Below, piece after piece: positions 1,424 through 7,186 of a stretch of 64,000 nt of DNA. Made by a program: the position numbers and the translations under genes. The notes below the pieces were generated by a model that saw nothing but the letters and a program-made list of their open reading frames with translations, searched no databases and was not told the DNA's origin. The DNA is from Anaerolineales bacterium (GTDB lineage Bacteria > Chloroflexota > Anaerolineae > Anaerolineales > E44-bin32). Location of the stretch: assembly GCA_034430895.1 (NCBI GenBank), contig DAOUDW010000035.1:121189-185188 (forward strand), written 5' to 3'. Within the stretch, counting starts at the first letter, position 1. Every line of letters starts with the position of its first letter.

Positions 1424-2038
1424 TTATATTTCCCTCGTTTCTGATGGATCGACACCCTGGATCATCAATAAATATCCCATAACAAGCGCGATACCGATAT
1501 GTACACACGCCAGCAATCCTACCACCGCCAAAGATGGTTCAATCAAACTGTAGGTTATTTCGAAACCGGATAAAAGTGTCAGCAGACCAATGCCCACGCG
1601 CATTGGTTCTTCACATAATCCCAAATGAAGAAAACTTAGACAAACCAGCAGGGCTGTACCCAGACCTACTTCAGGAGCGATGCCTTCAAGATTTATCAGA
1701 TTTACAGCGCCAAGACCGATAGCGACGAGCGTGACCAATAACACTGCAATGATTCGAAAAAAACTATTGAACGGGATTGTCCTTGATTCTCCAATATCAA
1801 ATTTCCCGTCTGTATTTCTTATGCAGATTAAGAATATCGCACAGGCGGCCATTCCTGCGAGCCATTTCGAACCTGCGATTTGCATGTTAAGCGTGGACGA
1901 TATCAGCAGGGCAACAAAGACATACTGCACGGCCAGTATCAATACCAACAATCGTCGATCGTCGAGCAGCACGATCAAACCACCAGTTATCCCTAAACCG
2001 ATCACCGCTATCTGGATCCAAATATCCGCTGTGATCAT
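1424..2038 (-). CDS. Small polytopic membrane protein (about 6 TM segments), possible HyfE/NuoJK-like partner of the flanking antiporter-like proteins
   Basis: I trimmed the ORF to the ATG at 2038, which overlaps the upstream stop as ATGA. The protein starts MITADIWIQIAVIGL and is hydrophobic throughout. The function is inferred only from size and position between two antiporter-like genes. Confidence 0.45.
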   Translation of the reverse strand: MITADIWIQIAVIGLGITGGLIVLLDDRRLLVLILAVQYVFVALLISSTLNMQIAGSKWLAGMAACAIFLICIRNTDGKFDIGESRTIPFNSFFRIIAVLLVTLVAIGLGAVNLINLEGIAPEVGLGTALLVCLSFLHLGLCEEPMRVGIGLLTLLSGFEITYSLIEPSLAVVGLLACVHIGIALVMGYLLMIQGVDPSETREI

Positions 2039-3600
2039 GCAATTCCTCGCACGCCCAAATAAGTGAGCAACAATATTACGACAATCCACAACATTGCGCC
2101 CTCTCCTTCTAACGCATCGCTTGCTCCACAGGCTACTCTCATTATCGCCCTACCGATTAACGCAAATAGACGTACAATGGGACCCATATCGAACCAGGCT
2201 AGAAGTCTTCCCCAACGATCTACGTCTCTCATTGGAAGTTTTCGTATCGCCAGTGTGAACACCACGGCCAAACCACCTATTACGAGAAACCCAATGAATC
2301 CGATAAGTGTAACCTCGTCAAACATTCTCAATCCAAGTCCGATTAAAACAACGACCGGGAAACTTAAACCAACGCCATACATAAAGCGGACCGAGCTTTC
2401 GGCAGTTAGCCACCTTACAGAAGGTAAATTTAAATAACGCAAGGTTCCCATACCCAACAAAACCATACCGATGATGCCAATGACAACTTTAATAATAGAA
2501 CTTAGGCCTGTGATCGAAACGATCATGTTCGTCAACACTACCCCACCTGGCGTCCATGGGCAGCCGGCGATAATAATTGCGTATAAAATCGGCCATATCC
2601 GGTGAGGCGGCGAGAATATTTCAATTGAGTAGAACACCCCTCCGATTAGAATCAATAAAGTACCCACGGCTGTGATCACACTGGCATCGCCAGGACTTAA
2701 ACTGGCAACAAAAATACCCAATCCGGAAATTGCCAATATAAAAGCTTGTTGAACTCTTGATTCGTCACGATCGAATACCCATTGCACACCGCCAATCAAC
2801 AAAGTTAATCCACCTGCCAGACTCAGCCATGGCACGACATCCTCGGGCACACCGTTGTCGAAAACTCTGGCAAGCAATGCAAAAGCTGCTCCTGCCGGTA
2901 ATAATTTTTGTAAAATTTCTATTCCGTGTCGTTCAGTCGGATAAGACACTGCCCCAAATTGGAACTGGAAGAACCCTAGTCGCAACATGGCCGCCAATGC
3001 GAGGAATAATACAGAACCAGATGAAACGAATGAACCTGTTAAGGAGCTGTTCCCGCCCTCTGATATATTTATCATCGCAGCCAGCAGAATCATGATCAAA
3101 CTTGCTCCATCGATCGATAAACGGGGTATCAAGGATGAAATACGGCTTTCTCGATCGAACAAATCAAGCATTACGACGATCGACACCACGTCCATTAACA
3201 TCCATGTCATCGCAAATGTGAGTATGTTTCCTGACAACATCGATACAATCGGAGATGCTGAATAAATCAACAACAATGCTTGCCTGCGAGTTTTCATTTT
3301 ATATCTTGCAGGGTGTGTGAGTACGATTACTAATAGTAGCGTTGTAGAAGCATATACGAATGGCCAACTTATCGAATCAAGCTTTAACTCAATCTGCGAT
3401 ATAAATAATGATTCTGGTCTCCATACCGATACTTCGTATACATCGGGAATGATTGTAATCAAAGCCAAACTGAGCAACCAAACAAGCAATGCCGTGGATG
3501 TCGAAATTGTCCAGCCAATTCGAGCCGGCCGATTTCGAACGTACCATGTTGCGATAGCGCCAAGAAGTAAAATGATGATTGTTAAAAATACCATTCCCAC
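2035..3600 (-). CDS. Large polytopic membrane protein, highly divergent antiporter-like (NuoL/M/HyfD-like) subunit
   Basis: 521-aa ORF with a GTG at 3600 or an ATG at 3594 preceded by GAGGTG. It has many hydrophobic segments. At the position where the PFHxW motif is expected it has only a degenerate 'LGFFQFQFG'. It is the first gene of a co-directional, translationally coupled triad. Confidence 0.45.
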   Translation of the reverse strand: MGMVFLTIIILLLGAIATWYVRNRPARIGWTISTSTALLVWLLSLALITIIPDVYEVSVWRPESLFISQIELKLDSISWPFVYASTTLLLVIVLTHPARYKMKTRRQALLLIYSASPIVSMLSGNILTFAMTWMLMDVVSIVVMLDLFDRESRISSLIPRLSIDGASLIMILLAAMINISEGGNSSLTGSFVSSGSVLFLALAAMLRLGFFQFQFGAVSYPTERHGIEILQKLLPAGAAFALLARVFDNGVPEDVVPWLSLAGGLTLLIGGVQWVFDRDESRVQQAFILAISGLGIFVASLSPGDASVITAVGTLLILIGGVFYSIEIFSPPHRIWPILYAIIIAGCPWTPGGVVLTNMIVSITGLSSIIKVVIGIIGMVLLGMGTLRYLNLPSVRWLTAESSVRFMYGVGLSFPVVVLIGLGLRMFDEVTLIGFIGFLVIGGLAVVFTLAIRKLPMRDVDRWGRLLAWFDMGPIVRLFALIGRAIMRVACGASDALEGEGAMLWIVVILLLTYLGVRGIA

Positions 3601-3731
3601 CTCAAGATCTTTCGATCTTTCTTCAACCTGGCAACAAGCATACCATGGCTGGCTTCAAGGTAGTTAATCTTCATCTTATCGAATCCGTAGAAAAACTATC
3701 TATGAAATTCTCATTCTACAAATAGAAACTT

Positions 3732-3761
3732 TTCGATATGGCTCACTCAATGTGCTATAAT
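3732..3761 (+). promoter_or_regulatory. Extended -10 promoter for hisS
   Basis: TGTGCTATAAT at 3751-3761 (TG-n-TATAAT), with a weak -35-like TTCGAT about 18 nt upstream. Confidence 0.5.
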
Positions 3762-3883
3762 CTTGTCCGTGATTTCTCGTCGCTCTCGGAAATCTTTCTA
3801 CCCATCGAGGCATCATTACTGTTATGAGGAGAATTGATCGGGAAAAAATCCCCGCCCTACTCGTAATATTTTAATGCATTCAA

Positions 3884-3914
3884 AGACGGCGTGGGGAACA
3901 CCACGCCGTCTTTT
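3884..3914 (+). terminator. Intrinsic-terminator-like hairpin inside the hisS 5' leader (candidate attenuator)
   Basis: AGACGGCGTGG (3884-3894) pairs perfectly over 11 bp with CCACGCCGTCT (3901-3911) across the loop GGAACA. The hairpin is followed by a T-run of about 4 and lies 25 nt upstream of the hisS ATG. Confidence 0.5.
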
Positions 3915-3938
3915 AGGTTATTGATCGGGAGATACAAC

Positions 3939-5207
3939 ATGTCCACGATTACTGCAGTAAAAGGCACCCGGGATTTTTACCCGTCCGACATGGCATTCCA
4001 TGATTGGCTATTTGATACCATTCGTTCAGTATCGGAACAATTTGGCTATCAAAAGTATGATGGCCCATACCTTGAAAGAATGGCATTGTATGCTGCGAAG
4101 TCCGGTGAAGAGTTAGTCAACGAACAATCATTCGTATTTGAAGATCGCGGCGGCGATATGGTTGCATTACGTCCGGAACTGACCCCCACGCTTGCTCGCA
4201 TGGTTGCGGCTCGCAGCCGCCAATTAATCCAGCCGATTCGATGGTGGTCTTTTGGACCTTTTTGGCGCTACGAACGTCCCCAGAAAGGGCGTACGCGTGA
4301 GTTCTTCCAATGGAACGTCGATCTTCTCGGCATCGTCTCTCCTCAGGCAGATGCCGAACTCGCCGCCATCTCGGCCACGTTCTTTCGAGCGGTCGGTCTA
4401 TCTCCTCAAATGATACGCTTGCAAATCAACAATCGTCGTCTTATGGACGCAAAATTGGAGTCGGTCGGGATCGCTATGGAGAATCGCCCTGCCGTCTTTC
4501 GTCTCATCGATCGCAAGGAGAAAATGGACGATCGCGCCTGGCAAGATAAAGCGAAATCGATTGGTATCGACAAGGATCAATTTTCCGTTTTGTGCAACAT
4601 TCTCGCAGACAAAGATGCATGGAAGGATTTTGATGAACTCCGCGAGTTTTTCGATTCTGTCGAAATGATGGGCGTGGCCGATTACTTCGAATATGATCCC
4701 AAGGTCATTCGCGGATTGGATTACTACACAGGAACCGTGTTTGAAGCACGGGACGCATCCGGCGAAGAGCGTGCGATTCTGGGTGGCGGTCGCTACGACA
4801 ACCTCGTTGCCGATGTGGGCGGCGATCCGTTACCTGGTGTCGGTTTTGCCATGGGCGACGTCGTCCTCGGTATCGTGCTTGAGAAGCACGGTTGCAAACC
4901 TTCGTTGCAGCCCAATCCATCAGATGTTTTTCTCCCCCTCTTTGACGAAACAACGCTTTCCGATAGCCTGCGTCTCGCTTCCGAACTCCGCAGCGCAGGT
5001 TTGCGTGTGGAATGGTACCCGCAACCCGACAAGCTTAAAAAGCAGTTTAAATATGCAGACCGCAATGACATTCCAATTGCCGTTGTGTTGGGGCCAGACG
5101 AGATTCAATCCGAATCGATCACGATCAAAGATTTACGCACGAAAACACAGGATTCTTTTCCTCGTGCAGAAATGATAAATAAAATTCGCGAGCTCCTGGA
5201 ATCCTAA
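3939..5207 (+). CDS. hisS: Histidine--tRNA ligase
   Basis: 'TAVKGTRDFYP', 'ALRPELTPTLARMVA' and 'RWWSFGPFWRYERPQKGRTREFFQWNVDLLG' are class II HisRS motifs. The start is set at ATG 3939, preceded by GGGAGA. The GTG at 3891 in the ORF track would include the leader hairpin. Confidence 0.95.
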   Translation: MSTITAVKGTRDFYPSDMAFHDWLFDTIRSVSEQFGYQKYDGPYLERMALYAAKSGEELVNEQSFVFEDRGGDMVALRPELTPTLARMVAARSRQLIQPIRWWSFGPFWRYERPQKGRTREFFQWNVDLLGIVSPQADAELAAISATFFRAVGLSPQMIRLQINNRRLMDAKLESVGIAMENRPAVFRLIDRKEKMDDRAWQDKAKSIGIDKDQFSVLCNILADKDAWKDFDELREFFDSVEMMGVADYFEYDPKVIRGLDYYTGTVFEARDASGEERAILGGGRYDNLVADVGGDPLPGVGFAMGDVVLGIVLEKHGCKPSLQPNPSDVFLPLFDETTLSDSLRLASELRSAGLRVEWYPQPDKLKKQFKYADRNDIPIAVVLGPDEIQSESITIKDLRTKTQDSFPRAEMINKIRELLES

Positions 5208-5270
5208 TCCATATCCAAATGATAGCTGTATGTAAGTTGTCTCAAGATGTTCCTATGATAGGATAAATTA

Positions 5271-5408
5271 AGTCGCCGCCTGGACGGATCGGGAGAGAAC
5301 AGTATATTAAACGGAGAGCGACTAGAGCCGAACTACATTGTAGCCATCGGCCTGCGCCTCAAAAATTTAGAGATGCTCTCCTCGATCCCAAGGCGGCGAT
5401 TTTTTTTC
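5271..5408 (+). ncRNA. Candidate rod-shaped small RNA, or an unusually elaborate hisS terminator
   Basis: A promoter-like TTGTCT-16-TGATAGGAT lies at 5237-5264. The paired helices are 5273-5281:5391-5399, 5286-5291:5383-5388, 5292-5297:5376-5381, 5314-5320:5355-5360 and 5327-5331:5347-5351. An AU-rich internal loop sits between the third and fourth helices, and eight T follow at 5400-5407. Confidence 0.35.
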
Positions 5409-5479
5409 TTAATAGAACTCTAATCCCTTGTATAGATTTCCTCGAAATATTCAATTCGTGTTAGAATGTGTCCGATCTT

Positions 5480-5553
5480 GGTGCCCGTAGCTCAACCGGT
5501 AGAGCGCCGCACTGTGGATGCGGTCGTTGAGGGTTCAAGTCCCTTCGGGCACC
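5480..5553 (+). tRNA. tRNA-His (anticodon GTG) with genomically encoded G-1
   Basis: Hand-folded cloverleaf with acceptor GTGCCCG/CGGGCAC, anticodon loop CTGTGGA and T-arm GAGGG-TTCAAGT-CCCTT. The extra 5' G at 5480 sits opposite discriminator C. CCA is not fully encoded. The extended -10 motif TGTTAGAAT lies upstream at 5459-5467. Confidence 0.93.
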
Positions 5554-5559
5554 CACATT

Positions 5560-5581
5560 ACGCCCAGAAATGGGCGTTATT
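5560..5581 (+). terminator. Hairpin terminator after tRNA-His
   Basis: ACGCCCA-GAAA-TGGGCGT followed by TTATT. It overlaps the stop codon of the convergent lipoprotein gene. Confidence 0.5.
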
Positions 5582-5945
5582 GATTCCCTGCCCCTTGCCA
5601 TTCTCCATTGACAACCTCAACGCGCCCTTCACATGCATCATTTAGCACGCTGAACGTCGCTGTATTCCCTCGCACTCCAACACGATACTTGCCTTCGATT
5701 TCGCCACAATCATCATCTACGAATAAGACTACGTTACCGCGAACATCATATTCCCCGCTTATCGTTCTACTACGCTCCCCTACCTGAAGTATAAAGGTTT
5801 CGTCTGTGTTGAAATTCATGCGGACGATATATTCATCGATCTGGCGTTCCCAAACGCCAGCAACCGATACGTTATCCTTGCCACATGCAGTAAGCAGAAG
5901 TATAAGGACTATTGCAATACAAAAGAAAAGCCATTGTTTTTTCAA
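5577..5945 (-). CDS. Small lipoprotein, unknown function
   Basis: Signal peptide with lipobox: 'MKKQWLFFCIAIVLILLLTAC'. 122 aa, with no motif I recognise. Confidence 0.6.
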   Translation of the reverse strand: MKKQWLFFCIAIVLILLLTACGKDNVSVAGVWERQIDEYIVRMNFNTDETFILQVGERSRTISGEYDVRGNVVLFVDDDCGEIEGKYRVGVRGNTATFSVLNDACEGRVEVVNGEWQGAGNQ

Positions 5946-6106: not shown

Positions 6107-7186
6107 CTATTCATCCTGCAGTTCAAATCCTGTGTCAACAAATCCTGCTGCGAGATCTTCGATCAATGCCAATGCCTCTTGCTCTCGCCCTGATGATAAC
6201 AAATCACGATTGACCTCGACAATCTGCAACTCCCACTGGATTTGGAAACCCCCTTTCCCTGCAAGCAGATCATTCCAGATGGTTTGCAGGCCTTCAAGAG
6301 CGGTAAATTGCACTGCCGCCATCCATTGGCTTTCCGGCACGATTTCCGGTCGCGGTCCATCTCCGATAATCGCGCTGTCGATCTGTGTCCATTCACTTAC
6401 TGTCGATTCGAACACACCTATCGGCGCCAGATAAATAACTCCGAGTTTGTTTTCGCGAATAATCCCAACAACTGATCCCCAGCCTTGTCCGTTTGAATCG
6501 AGATGCGTTGACTGAGGGTATTCATAGAAAGGCGGAAACGCGGGCCGGCATAATCCACAGAAGTACCGCGCGCCGTTTAGGAAACCCTCTTCAATGGCGC
6601 CATTTTCTTCACTCTCCCCAATGCTCACAACTCCTGCCCGCCAATCTTCGGCAACCATCGCAGAGATATAGCCGGCAACAAACGCCTGTTGATCCTTCCG
6701 CAGCCCATTTTCTCCAATGAGGCTTATATTGCTGCTGGGGGTGATGTTGGAAATTCCTACACCTATGAACTGGATTTCCGTAAACCTGGATGCGTAATTC
6801 TCAATCCCGGGATCATCCTCAAAGACAAATATGAGGAACACATCACTCTGGATATCTTCTTCGCTAATTTGATTTACGTTTTCAACAACAAGACCAGATT
6901 CTTCCGCCAGTAAAATTACTTCACCCATTAATTTACGCATCGCCCAATCTTCAGATTCCTGGGCGGCGTAAAACAGCACCTTTCGTTGGACTGGTTCAAT
7001 CGTTTCCCCGACATCGCTTGTAGTTGTCGGAGTAGATGTAATCATCCGCACCGCTTCAGTCGCCTCAGTACCACTTCCCGGGAAGTTACAACTTGTACAC
7101 AGAATCACGAATACAGCTGCAATCGCGAAGGCATGTAATGAGCCCTGCTTGATAAATTGACCTGCGGTTTTAGTTTTTATATCCAT
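6107..7186 (-). CDS. Lipoprotein, possibly a BMP/PnrA-family substrate-binding protein
   Basis: N-terminal hydrophobic anchor with Cys ('AVFVILCTSC'). 'QQAFVAGYISAMVAEDWRAGVVS' resembles the BMP-family AGYLAA core. No ABC partner genes are adjacent. Confidence 0.45.
   Translation of the reverse strand: MDIKTKTAGQFIKQGSLHAFAIAAVFVILCTSCNFPGSGTEATEAVRMITSTPTTTSDVGETIEPVQRKVLFYAAQESEDWAMRKLMGEVILLAEESGLVVENVNQISEEDIQSDVFLIFVFEDDPGIENYASRFTEIQFIGVGISNITPSSNISLIGENGLRKDQQAFVAGYISAMVAEDWRAGVVSIGESEENGAIEEGFLNGARYFCGLCRPAFPPFYEYPQSTHLDSNGQGWGSVVGIIRENKLGVIYLAPIGVFESTVSEWTQIDSAIIGDGPRPEIVPESQWMAAVQFTALEGLQTIWNDLLAGKGGFQIQWELQIVEVNRDLLSSGREQEALALIEDLAAGFVDTGFELQDE

Follow-up and report, generated by a model that had tools for sequence, protein, structure and literature searches.

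The 64,000-nucleotide stretch of DNA from an uncultivated member of the Anaerolineales analysed here (contig DAOUDW010000035.1 of assembly GCA_034430895.1, positions 121,189 to 185,188; hereafter the window) carries, between the histidine-tRNA ligase gene hisS (3939-5207) and the tRNA-His gene (5481-5554), what is very probably an independent gene for a structured small RNA (sRNA) of about 135 nt. It represents a new structured sRNA family that is absent from Rfam 15 and, as far as sampled, is confined to one subclade of Anaerolineales (Chloroflexota). Judged from the alignment, its body is under purifying selection, and the pattern of conservation suggests that the RNA is most likely a protein-binding decoy as opposed to a base-pairing RNA. 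By analogy with 6S RNA, the single most likely partner would be the RNA polymerase (RNAP) holoenzyme. The original prediction, made from the letters of the window, placed a promoter-to-terminator RNA between these two genes and asked whether it was 6S-like or a giant terminator. The location is correct, and a discrete RNA is now strongly supported by a promoter fixed in 13/13 homologues, by purifying selection and by compensatory changes. The parts of the gene are as follows.

5270..5407, plus strand: small RNA gene, supported by fold energy, covariance-model matches, invariant columns and compensatory changes
5220..5236, plus strand: direct repeat TGATAG-CTGTA-TGTAAG, centred at about -43 from the RNA start
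5256..5264, plus strand: extended -10 element TGATAGGAT (TGnTAnnAT), with its -10 hexamer at 5259-5264, conserved in homologues
5270..5281, plus strand: 5' strand of closing stem P1, AAGUCGCCGCCU, pairing with 5391-5402
5286..5296, plus strand: 5' strand of P2a, GGAUCG GGAGA, pairing with 5377-5388
5297..5301, plus strand: GAACA bulge of 5 nt (G28-A32), identical in 13/13 sequences and unpaired in the RNAalifold consensus
5302..5305, plus strand: 5' strand of P2b, GUAU, forming 4 bp with 5373-5376 (AUGC)
5306..5313, plus strand: 5' strand of the central internal loop, AUUAAACG, A-rich and variable, 8-10 nt in the family
5314..5360, plus strand: apical arm, GAG(A/U)GCGACUAGAGCCG / CGGCCUGCGCCUC, an irregular, invariant helix
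5361..5372, plus strand: 3' strand of the central internal loop, AAAAAUUUAGAG, its first three A invariant and the remainder variable and A/U/G-rich
5373..5399, plus strand: 3' strands of P2b, P2a and P1, AUGC UCUCC U CGAUCC CAA GGCGGCGA, assigned from the fold and the pair analysis
5400..5407, plus strand: U-tract (T8), read from the sequence, directly behind the GC-rich P1

Fold, ends and promoter of the small RNA

The plus strand of positions 5265-5410 folds at -61.5 kcal/mol, compared with -36.6 +/- 3.3 kcal/mol in 200 dinucleotide shuffles (z = -7.6), none of which is as stable. All of the helices first described are found where they had been placed, in both the sequence and the minimum-free-energy (MFE) fold: 5273-5281/5391-5399, 5286-5291/5383-5388, 5292-5297/5376-5381 and those of the apical arm at 5314-5360. 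The one internal loop of about 16 x 15 nt that had been drawn between them is better described, in the consensus, as the GAACA bulge, the covarying 4-bp helix P2b and an A-rich loop of 8 x 12 nt; it is near this centre (GAACA bulge and P2b) that the RNAalifold consensus improves on the fold of the single sequence. Every distinct homologue folds into the same rod. The reverse strand of the element folds less well (z = -5.0), and counts of G-U versus A-C pairs (15 versus 16) are uninformative as to strand; the RNA is assigned to the plus strand because of its promoter, its U-tract and the fold energies. A small open reading frame (ORF) was considered and rejected, since the plus strand holds none of at least 20 aa and the variable segments differ by indels of 1-2 nt.

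The transcript is predicted to run from A5270/A5271 to the U-tract, which gives lengths of 131-138 nt across the homologues. In 13/13 hisS-linked homologues, the motif TGnTAnn[AT]T begins at -14/-15 from the first conserved base of the RNA, in surroundings that are otherwise unalignable. Both the extended -10 at 5256-5264 and a start near 5271 agree with what had been proposed. The accompanying -35 box, TTGTCT, is present at 5237-5242 but is not conserved; conserved in its stead is the direct repeat at 5220-5236. This repeat has the consensus TG(T/A)(A/T)A-N6-TGTAAG with an 11-bp period, lies at -50/-51 in 13/13 hisS-linked homologues (the loci listed with it at this position are L001-L003, L081, L083, L091, L099, L103, L105, L133 and L139), and starts exactly 36 nt 5' of the TG of the extended -10 in every copy. 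It matches once in the window, where 0.06 matches are expected, and across 143 loci it is confined to the region upstream of the small RNA (18/18 matches). The proximal half stops 22 nt short of the -10 hexamer, a gap that appears to exceed the spacing of a sigma-70 -35 box, and the repeat is instead probably bound by an activator of transcription, presumably one of the response-regulator type. Direct repeats phased at 11 bp presumably resemble OmpR/PhoB-type boxes, a likeness that we take as a lead only.

At the 3' end, the T8 run is present at 5400-5407 as first described, but it is not conserved beyond the window subclade. Within the family only the first three T never change, GCGrCGAUUU is the sole invariant part of the 3' end, and the U-tract of the relatives decays to AUUU plus mixed bases. 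The GC-rich stem and U-tract at 5391-5407 nevertheless likely form, judging by their sequence, an intrinsic termination site. A terminator scan gave no terminator-like site between the end of hisS and the RNA (5207-5270), and for this reason the hairpin probably also ends hisS read-through transcripts. In one clade (L099, L133 and L109), a second canonical terminator (CCCUUGG-UCAA-CCCAAGGG followed by a U-run) is found about 20 nt beyond the RNA, and the primary transcript of this clade may be longer and trimmed at its 3' end.

Homologues and patterns of conservation

Homologues were sought by a HisS-guided scan with one genome per GTDB species, which yielded 80 Anaerolineales hisS loci, on hisS contigs of intermediate relatives, by a metagenome scan with a two-block pattern taken from the invariant apical helix, and with covariance models R1 and R2, run over the other Anaerolineales hisS loci. 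Among the 80 loci, only the three closest carry the element (HisS 78-94% identical), with RNAs 91-98% identical to that of the window and flanking similarity that fades fast on both sides. Four more diverged copies, from the intermediate relatives L081, L082, L083 and L139 (HisS 64-68%), score 86-112 bits with the covariance models, and matches of 102-170 bits were obtained in 18 loci. The metagenome scan returned 52 matches, comprising 12 true homologues, several of them new sequences, and 40 chance matches inside coding sequence. The total comes to 13 distinct full-length sequences including the window, all directly 3' of hisS. The carriers, which are Anaerolineales genomes and metagenome contigs, share 64-94% HisS identity with the window, and tRNA-His follows 70-340 nt beyond the RNA wherever the contig reaches far enough. 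Among the assemblies with the element are GCA_001303965.1 (Anaerolineae bacterium SM23_63, from estuary sediment), GCA_011174845.1 and GCA_964385305.1, and further copies are on contigs DAOUEK010000098.1, DAOUEE010000201.1 and CAYYVY010000030.1; GCA_024277995.1 and GCA_027058695.1 are near sisters without it at hisS. Estuarine sediment is a likely source habitat. The element occurs once in the 64-kb window and is thus a clade-restricted gene, single-copy and syntenic, and not a repeat. Sliding-window folding of the 450 nt 3' of hisS at the 77 non-carrier loci gave nothing but ordinary terminators, tRNAs and coding sequence, with no rod of the 6S kind.

A copy at L109 (462-598, minus strand) departs from this arrangement, with GCUUCCGAGC replacing the 5' closing strand ACAUCGCCGC and with neither promoter nor hisS. 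It sits behind a 153-aa ORF, and its downstream sequence is close to that of L133 over the roughly 80 nt compared. The locus may be a genomic rearrangement or an assembly chimera.

In the alignment of the 13 sequences, 67/143 columns are invariant and the flanks are unalignable, even though 30-35% of positions are different between the window and the distant members, the HisS of which is only 64-68% identical. Invariance is concentrated in the helices (55/88 paired columns, as compared with 12/55 unpaired ones), and invariant unpaired runs are only 3-5 nt long (GAACA and AAA). In the refined consensus, 94.2% of pair cells hold standard pairs, as opposed to 37-45% when partners are slid by 1-3 columns. 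Compensatory double changes, proposed at the outset as a check on related hisS loci, occur at 11 pairs, against 6.7 +/- 1.2 in column shuffles, with 0/500 shuffles reaching 11 and the slid controls giving 0-6 such pairs.

The individual helices divide into constant and covarying parts. The P1 core UCGCCGC/GCGGCGA is nearly invariant, with pairs 4-10/129-135 unchanged in 12-13/13 sequences, and pair 11/128 next to it covaries (CG:6, UA:5, UG:2). P2a covaries in its outer half, where pairs 19-22/119-122 exchange GC, UA and UG, and is invariant in its inner half, GGAGA/UCUCC (pairs 23-26/114-117). P2b covaries across clades as GUAU/AUGC, UUUU/GAGA and GCUU/AAGA (pair 33/112, GC:6 and UA:4; pair 35/110, AU:6 and UA:6). 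Of the 14 bp of the apical helix, 11 never vary and 98.4% of cells are paired; its four single-nucleotide bulges all lie on the 5' strand, and the stem-loop at its tip (5333-5343) is variable and covarying (tip pair 69/77, CG:8 and UA:5). The central loop measures 8-10 x 11-13 nt in 13/13 sequences, and both of its strands are A-rich and variable in sequence. The duplex energy between these strands ranges from -2.9 to +2.0 kcal/mol across the 13 sequences. A search for selection against complementarity in this loop was negative, the A-rich composition leaving it not clearly more open than shuffled sequence.

Possible partners and mechanisms

Helices and bulges that are invariant, together with an open loop that keeps its size while its sequence varies, argue against a seed-based sRNA and fit the recognition of RNA shape by a protein. 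The known system nearest to it in architecture is 6S RNA (SsrS/BsrA; RF00013 and lineage-specific models), and the element shares with it the rod, the closing arm, the large open variable loop and the bulged apical arm, as well as an own promoter, a single copy and a position among housekeeping genes. 6S RNAs are rods whose central bubble is unstructured; they have a closing arm and a bulged apical arm, share limited sequence identity, carry a -10-like element in the 3' strand of the bubble and mimic an open promoter (PMC8876501). A 78-nt core of 6S-1 that lacks the -35 region binds sigma-A RNAP in vitro and templates product RNA (pRNA), and the terminal stem is dispensable for RNAP binding (PMC8876501). 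Given that so short a core is functional, a natural version of 135 nt is physically plausible. In Bacillus subtilis, the hisS-aspS operon has aspS in second place. The 6S-1 gene (bsrA) of this species lies just downstream of aspS (PMC11077062), a likeness in position to the window element that may serve as a weak lead.

The RNA is presumably transcribed from its own extended -10 (5256-5264), probably with an activator bound at the phased direct repeat (5220-5236, about -43), and transcription presumably terminates at the GC-rich closing stem and U-tract (5391-5407). A 6S-like RNAP decoy mechanism, which we regard as possible but doubtful, would operate as follows. Downstream DNA would be imitated by the closing arm; the melted bubble would have its counterpart in the A-rich 9 x 12 loop taken together with the weak 4-bp helix and the GAACA bulge; and the bulged, invariant apical helix would mimic the duplex of the -12 to -25 spacer and extended -10. 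The invariant AAA at the start of the 3' loop strand would open the non-template-like strand, and transcription would begin on the invariant GGAGAGAACA as template, from which the pRNA would read ...UGUUCUCUCC. A -35 arm would be dispensable in a lineage whose promoters, as seen here, are of the extended -10 type. GGAGAGAACA is located at the junction of the closing arm and the bubble, where 6S RNAs template pRNA, and its sequence would be compatible with such templating. When pRNA synthesis was simulated by masking the 14-nt template and refolding, a second GGAGAG paired with the freed CUCUCC in 4/5 sequences of the window subclade, L003 being the one in which it did not. Two copies of GGAGAG are found in this subclade, at 5292-5297 and 5313-5318. 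In its most complete form, the proposal is that of the smallest natural 6S-type decoy, one that has no -35 arm, mimics the extended -10 and spacer, lies beyond the Rfam 6S models, replaces or supplements canonical 6S and answers to a dedicated activator; the conjunction of all these features is unlikely.

A number of results weigh against a 6S-like RNA. Rfam searches yielded only three tRNAs in the whole window at the gathering score, one noise match outside the hairpin in 5150-5500 with E up to 10 and relaxed filters, and tRNAs plus noise in six homologue loci with E up to 10. With no match, the element falls outside all 4227 Rfam families, 6S among them, which is the outcome of the Rfam check proposed at the outset. 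6S genes are reported to be 153-237 nt long, with about 200 nt being typical (PMC7726162, citing Wehner 2014), and the 131-138 nt of the element fall below this range. 6S is expected to be near-universal, and recognisable 6S is reported in Chloroflexi (PMC7726162), as opposed to the narrow distribution seen here: R1 and R2 recovered neither the element nor a distant homologue at the other 77 hisS loci of Anaerolineales, and no copy lies at the hisS locus of L137, L138 or L140, near-sister lineages which are as close as the most distant carriers. Its helices are sequence-invariant, and an apical helix and a distal closing stem that hardly vary at all are not typical of 6S. Furthermore, the apical arm is too short for a full -35 mimic, the centre is split by the 4-bp helix and the invariant GAACA bulge, and in the other 8 sequences the refolding simulation gave no conserved alternative helix. 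What stands of the 6S comparison first drawn is thus the architecture of closing stem, open variable loop and apical stem; what does not is membership of the Rfam 6S families, and short length and narrow distribution also count against it. A literature search for 6S RNA in Chloroflexota and Anaerolineae found nothing specific to Anaerolineae.

Rod-like RNAs outside the 6S models do have precedent. Ms1 of Actinobacteria is roughly twice as long as the element. Together with the RNAs found by RNA immunoprecipitation sequencing (RIP-seq), it illustrates lineage-restricted rods that replace 6S or work beside it and that the 6S model does not detect (PMC11077062). Ms1 differs from the element in that it binds core RNAP, and the two have no sequence or model similarity.

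It is also quite conceivable, though not what we would expect, that the element is a lineage-specific RNA with a protein partner that is not RNAP, which it would bind or sequester by means of its closing stem, apical helix and GAACA bulge. In that case the A-rich loop would be a flexible hinge or a second binding surface, and a signal-responsive activator would switch the RNA on. Invariant helices and bulges with variable loops are the pattern expected when a protein recognises shaped double-stranded RNA, the private phased repeat suggests induction under specific conditions, and both the narrow phyletic range, which fits an accessory better than a universal regulator, and the lack of an Rfam match point in the same direction. 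On the other side, no candidate partner gene is linked to the element, whose neighbours are hisS, tRNA-His and ORFs with no Pfam match, with clade-dependent genes downstream, and the explanation is generic in that it names no mechanism that sequence could test. Y RNAs, which bind Ro/Rsr proteins, measure about 100-130 nt and have a conserved protein-binding stem formed by their ends, a large internal loop and a 3' U-tail. The element is similar to them in size, terminal stem, large internal loop and U-tail, and differs in lacking a match to the Rfam Y_RNA or YrlA models and the tRNA-like module of the bacterial members. None of the genes adjacent to the element, as distinct from the window as a whole, was identified as Rsr/TROVE. 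K-turn, loop-E/sarcin-ricin, CsrA GGA-repeat, tRNA-His mimic and T-box specifier motifs were also looked for by eye in the alignment, and none is conserved across clades.

A trans-acting, base-pairing sRNA of the 3'-UTR (untranslated region) type, with an internal promoter and a short seed, is an improbable alternative. Such RNAs, for example MicL and DapZ, are embedded in the 3' UTR of another gene and have an internal promoter. They resemble the element in having a promoter just behind or inside the 3' end of the upstream gene and a terminator shared with the upstream mRNA, and the element indeed has its own promoter in the 3' region of hisS and a terminator hairpin with a U-tail. The locus of the relatives has a histidine theme, the targets might accordingly lie in histidine metabolism, and CCUC/CUCC motifs in the RNA could pair with Shine-Dalgarno sequences. 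However, 3'-UTR sRNAs act through conserved single-stranded seeds, whereas the single-stranded parts of the element are the variable ones. Invariant segments are almost all helical, which is the opposite of an accessible seed, and with 12/55 unpaired columns invariant, a conserved single-stranded seed was not found.

Highly improbable is the reduction of the element to a terminator and 3'-UTR stabiliser of hisS with no separate RNA function. The interval from hisS to the element holds no further terminator, and in the window a GC-rich closing stem of 9-12 bp is followed by T8, in the manner of an intrinsic terminator at 5391-5407. The loop of that terminator, however, would be about 105 nt of conserved, structured RNA in place of the usual 3-8 nt, the terminator scan made no call on it, and its U-tract degenerates in relatives that keep the RNA body. 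Termination does not need a conserved insert of this length, invariant bulges or a promoter at a fixed distance, and many Anaerolineales loci that retain the hisS-tRNA-His adjacency with a gap of 40-130 nt have no element. The giant terminator of the original prediction therefore leaves the invariant bulges and helices, the own promoter and the loss of the T-run in relatives unexplained. A T-box or another leader linked to an aminoacyl-tRNA synthetase was likewise rejected, as the element is downstream of hisS, tRNA-His has its own promoter and Rfam gives no T-box match. Finally, a DNA-level element, be it a MITE- or REP-like inverted repeat (the repeat check proposed at the outset) or a remnant of a mobile element, is scarcely credible: the long inverted repeat and the L109 copy in a different context would suit it, but there is one copy in 64 kb, 13/13 intact copies are syntenic at the same locus, no intact copy occurs elsewhere among the metagenome pattern matches, the viral contigs gave two chance matches and no true copy, compensatory changes keep RNA pairing, and there are neither target-site duplications nor transposase genes.

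The hisS locus and the significance of the element

The genes and signals around the element are the following.

3939..5207, plus strand: hisS (histidine-tRNA ligase), from its ORF and translation
5459-5467, plus strand: extended -10 of tRNA-His, TGTTAGAAT, a conserved block in alignment A1
5481-5554, plus strand: tRNA-His (GTG), with the extra G-1 encoded at 5480; ARAGORN, Rfam tRNA 65.7 bits, and sequence

The hisS product is 100% identical to P0001 and carries the Pfam domains tRNA-synt_His and HGTP_anticodon, and its best matches are metagenome-assembled genomes of Anaerolineales. From the hisS stop codon to the direct repeat upstream of the small RNA there are 13 nt, and the whole spacer between hisS and tRNA-His, which contains the hairpin, measures 273 nt. 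The tRNA-His gene is a separate transcription unit because it has an extended -10 of its own, and L082 has TGGTACAAT at the equivalent position. The gene has no full encoded CCA end, its sequence being ...CGGGCACC-CAC, and right behind it, at 5560-5577, is an ordinary terminator-like hairpin, ACGCCCAGAAATGGGCGT.

The flanking ORFs at 5577-5945, 6107-7186 and 2035-3600, all on the minus strand and 122, 359 and 521 aa long, have no Pfam match at E <= 0.01, and at L081, L082 and L141 similar-sized ORFs occupy equivalent positions on the same strand. Among four neighbouring ORFs searched against Pfam, YkuD was the sole informative match. The genes downstream of the locus differ between clades. In seven relatives with gene calls (L081-L083 and L137-L140), a Lyase_aromatic gene is found directly 5' of hisS (1204-2799 in L081, 728-2317 in L082 and 1233-2789 in L083). 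It is likely histidine ammonia-lyase (hutH), in which case the relatives would have a histidine-themed cluster, hutH-hisS-(RNA)-tRNA-His. The window lineage is without this gene and has about 300 nt (3600-3939) between the minus-strand 521-aa ORF and hisS. Over the window as a whole (1-64000), GC skew stays negative, and G+C climbs from 0.45 at the left end to 0.57 at around 48-52 kb.

Lineage-specific sRNAs are common, and what sets this element apart is its clean anatomy, its private repeat and the possibility that it is a minimal natural analogue of 6S. Sediments and digesters are rich in Chloroflexota, especially Anaerolineae. With a defined promoter, defined ends and a structure supported by covariation, the candidate can be synthesised and tested directly. 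If the RNA does bind RNAP, the natural size limit of 6S-type decoys would be lowered, a promoter mimic could forgo its -35 arm in an extended -10 lineage, and model-based annotation would be implied to under-count 6S-like regulators. If the partner is another protein, a new RNA-protein pair would be defined. In either case, the private repeat upstream of the gene would provide a handle on a regulator and the signal to which it responds.

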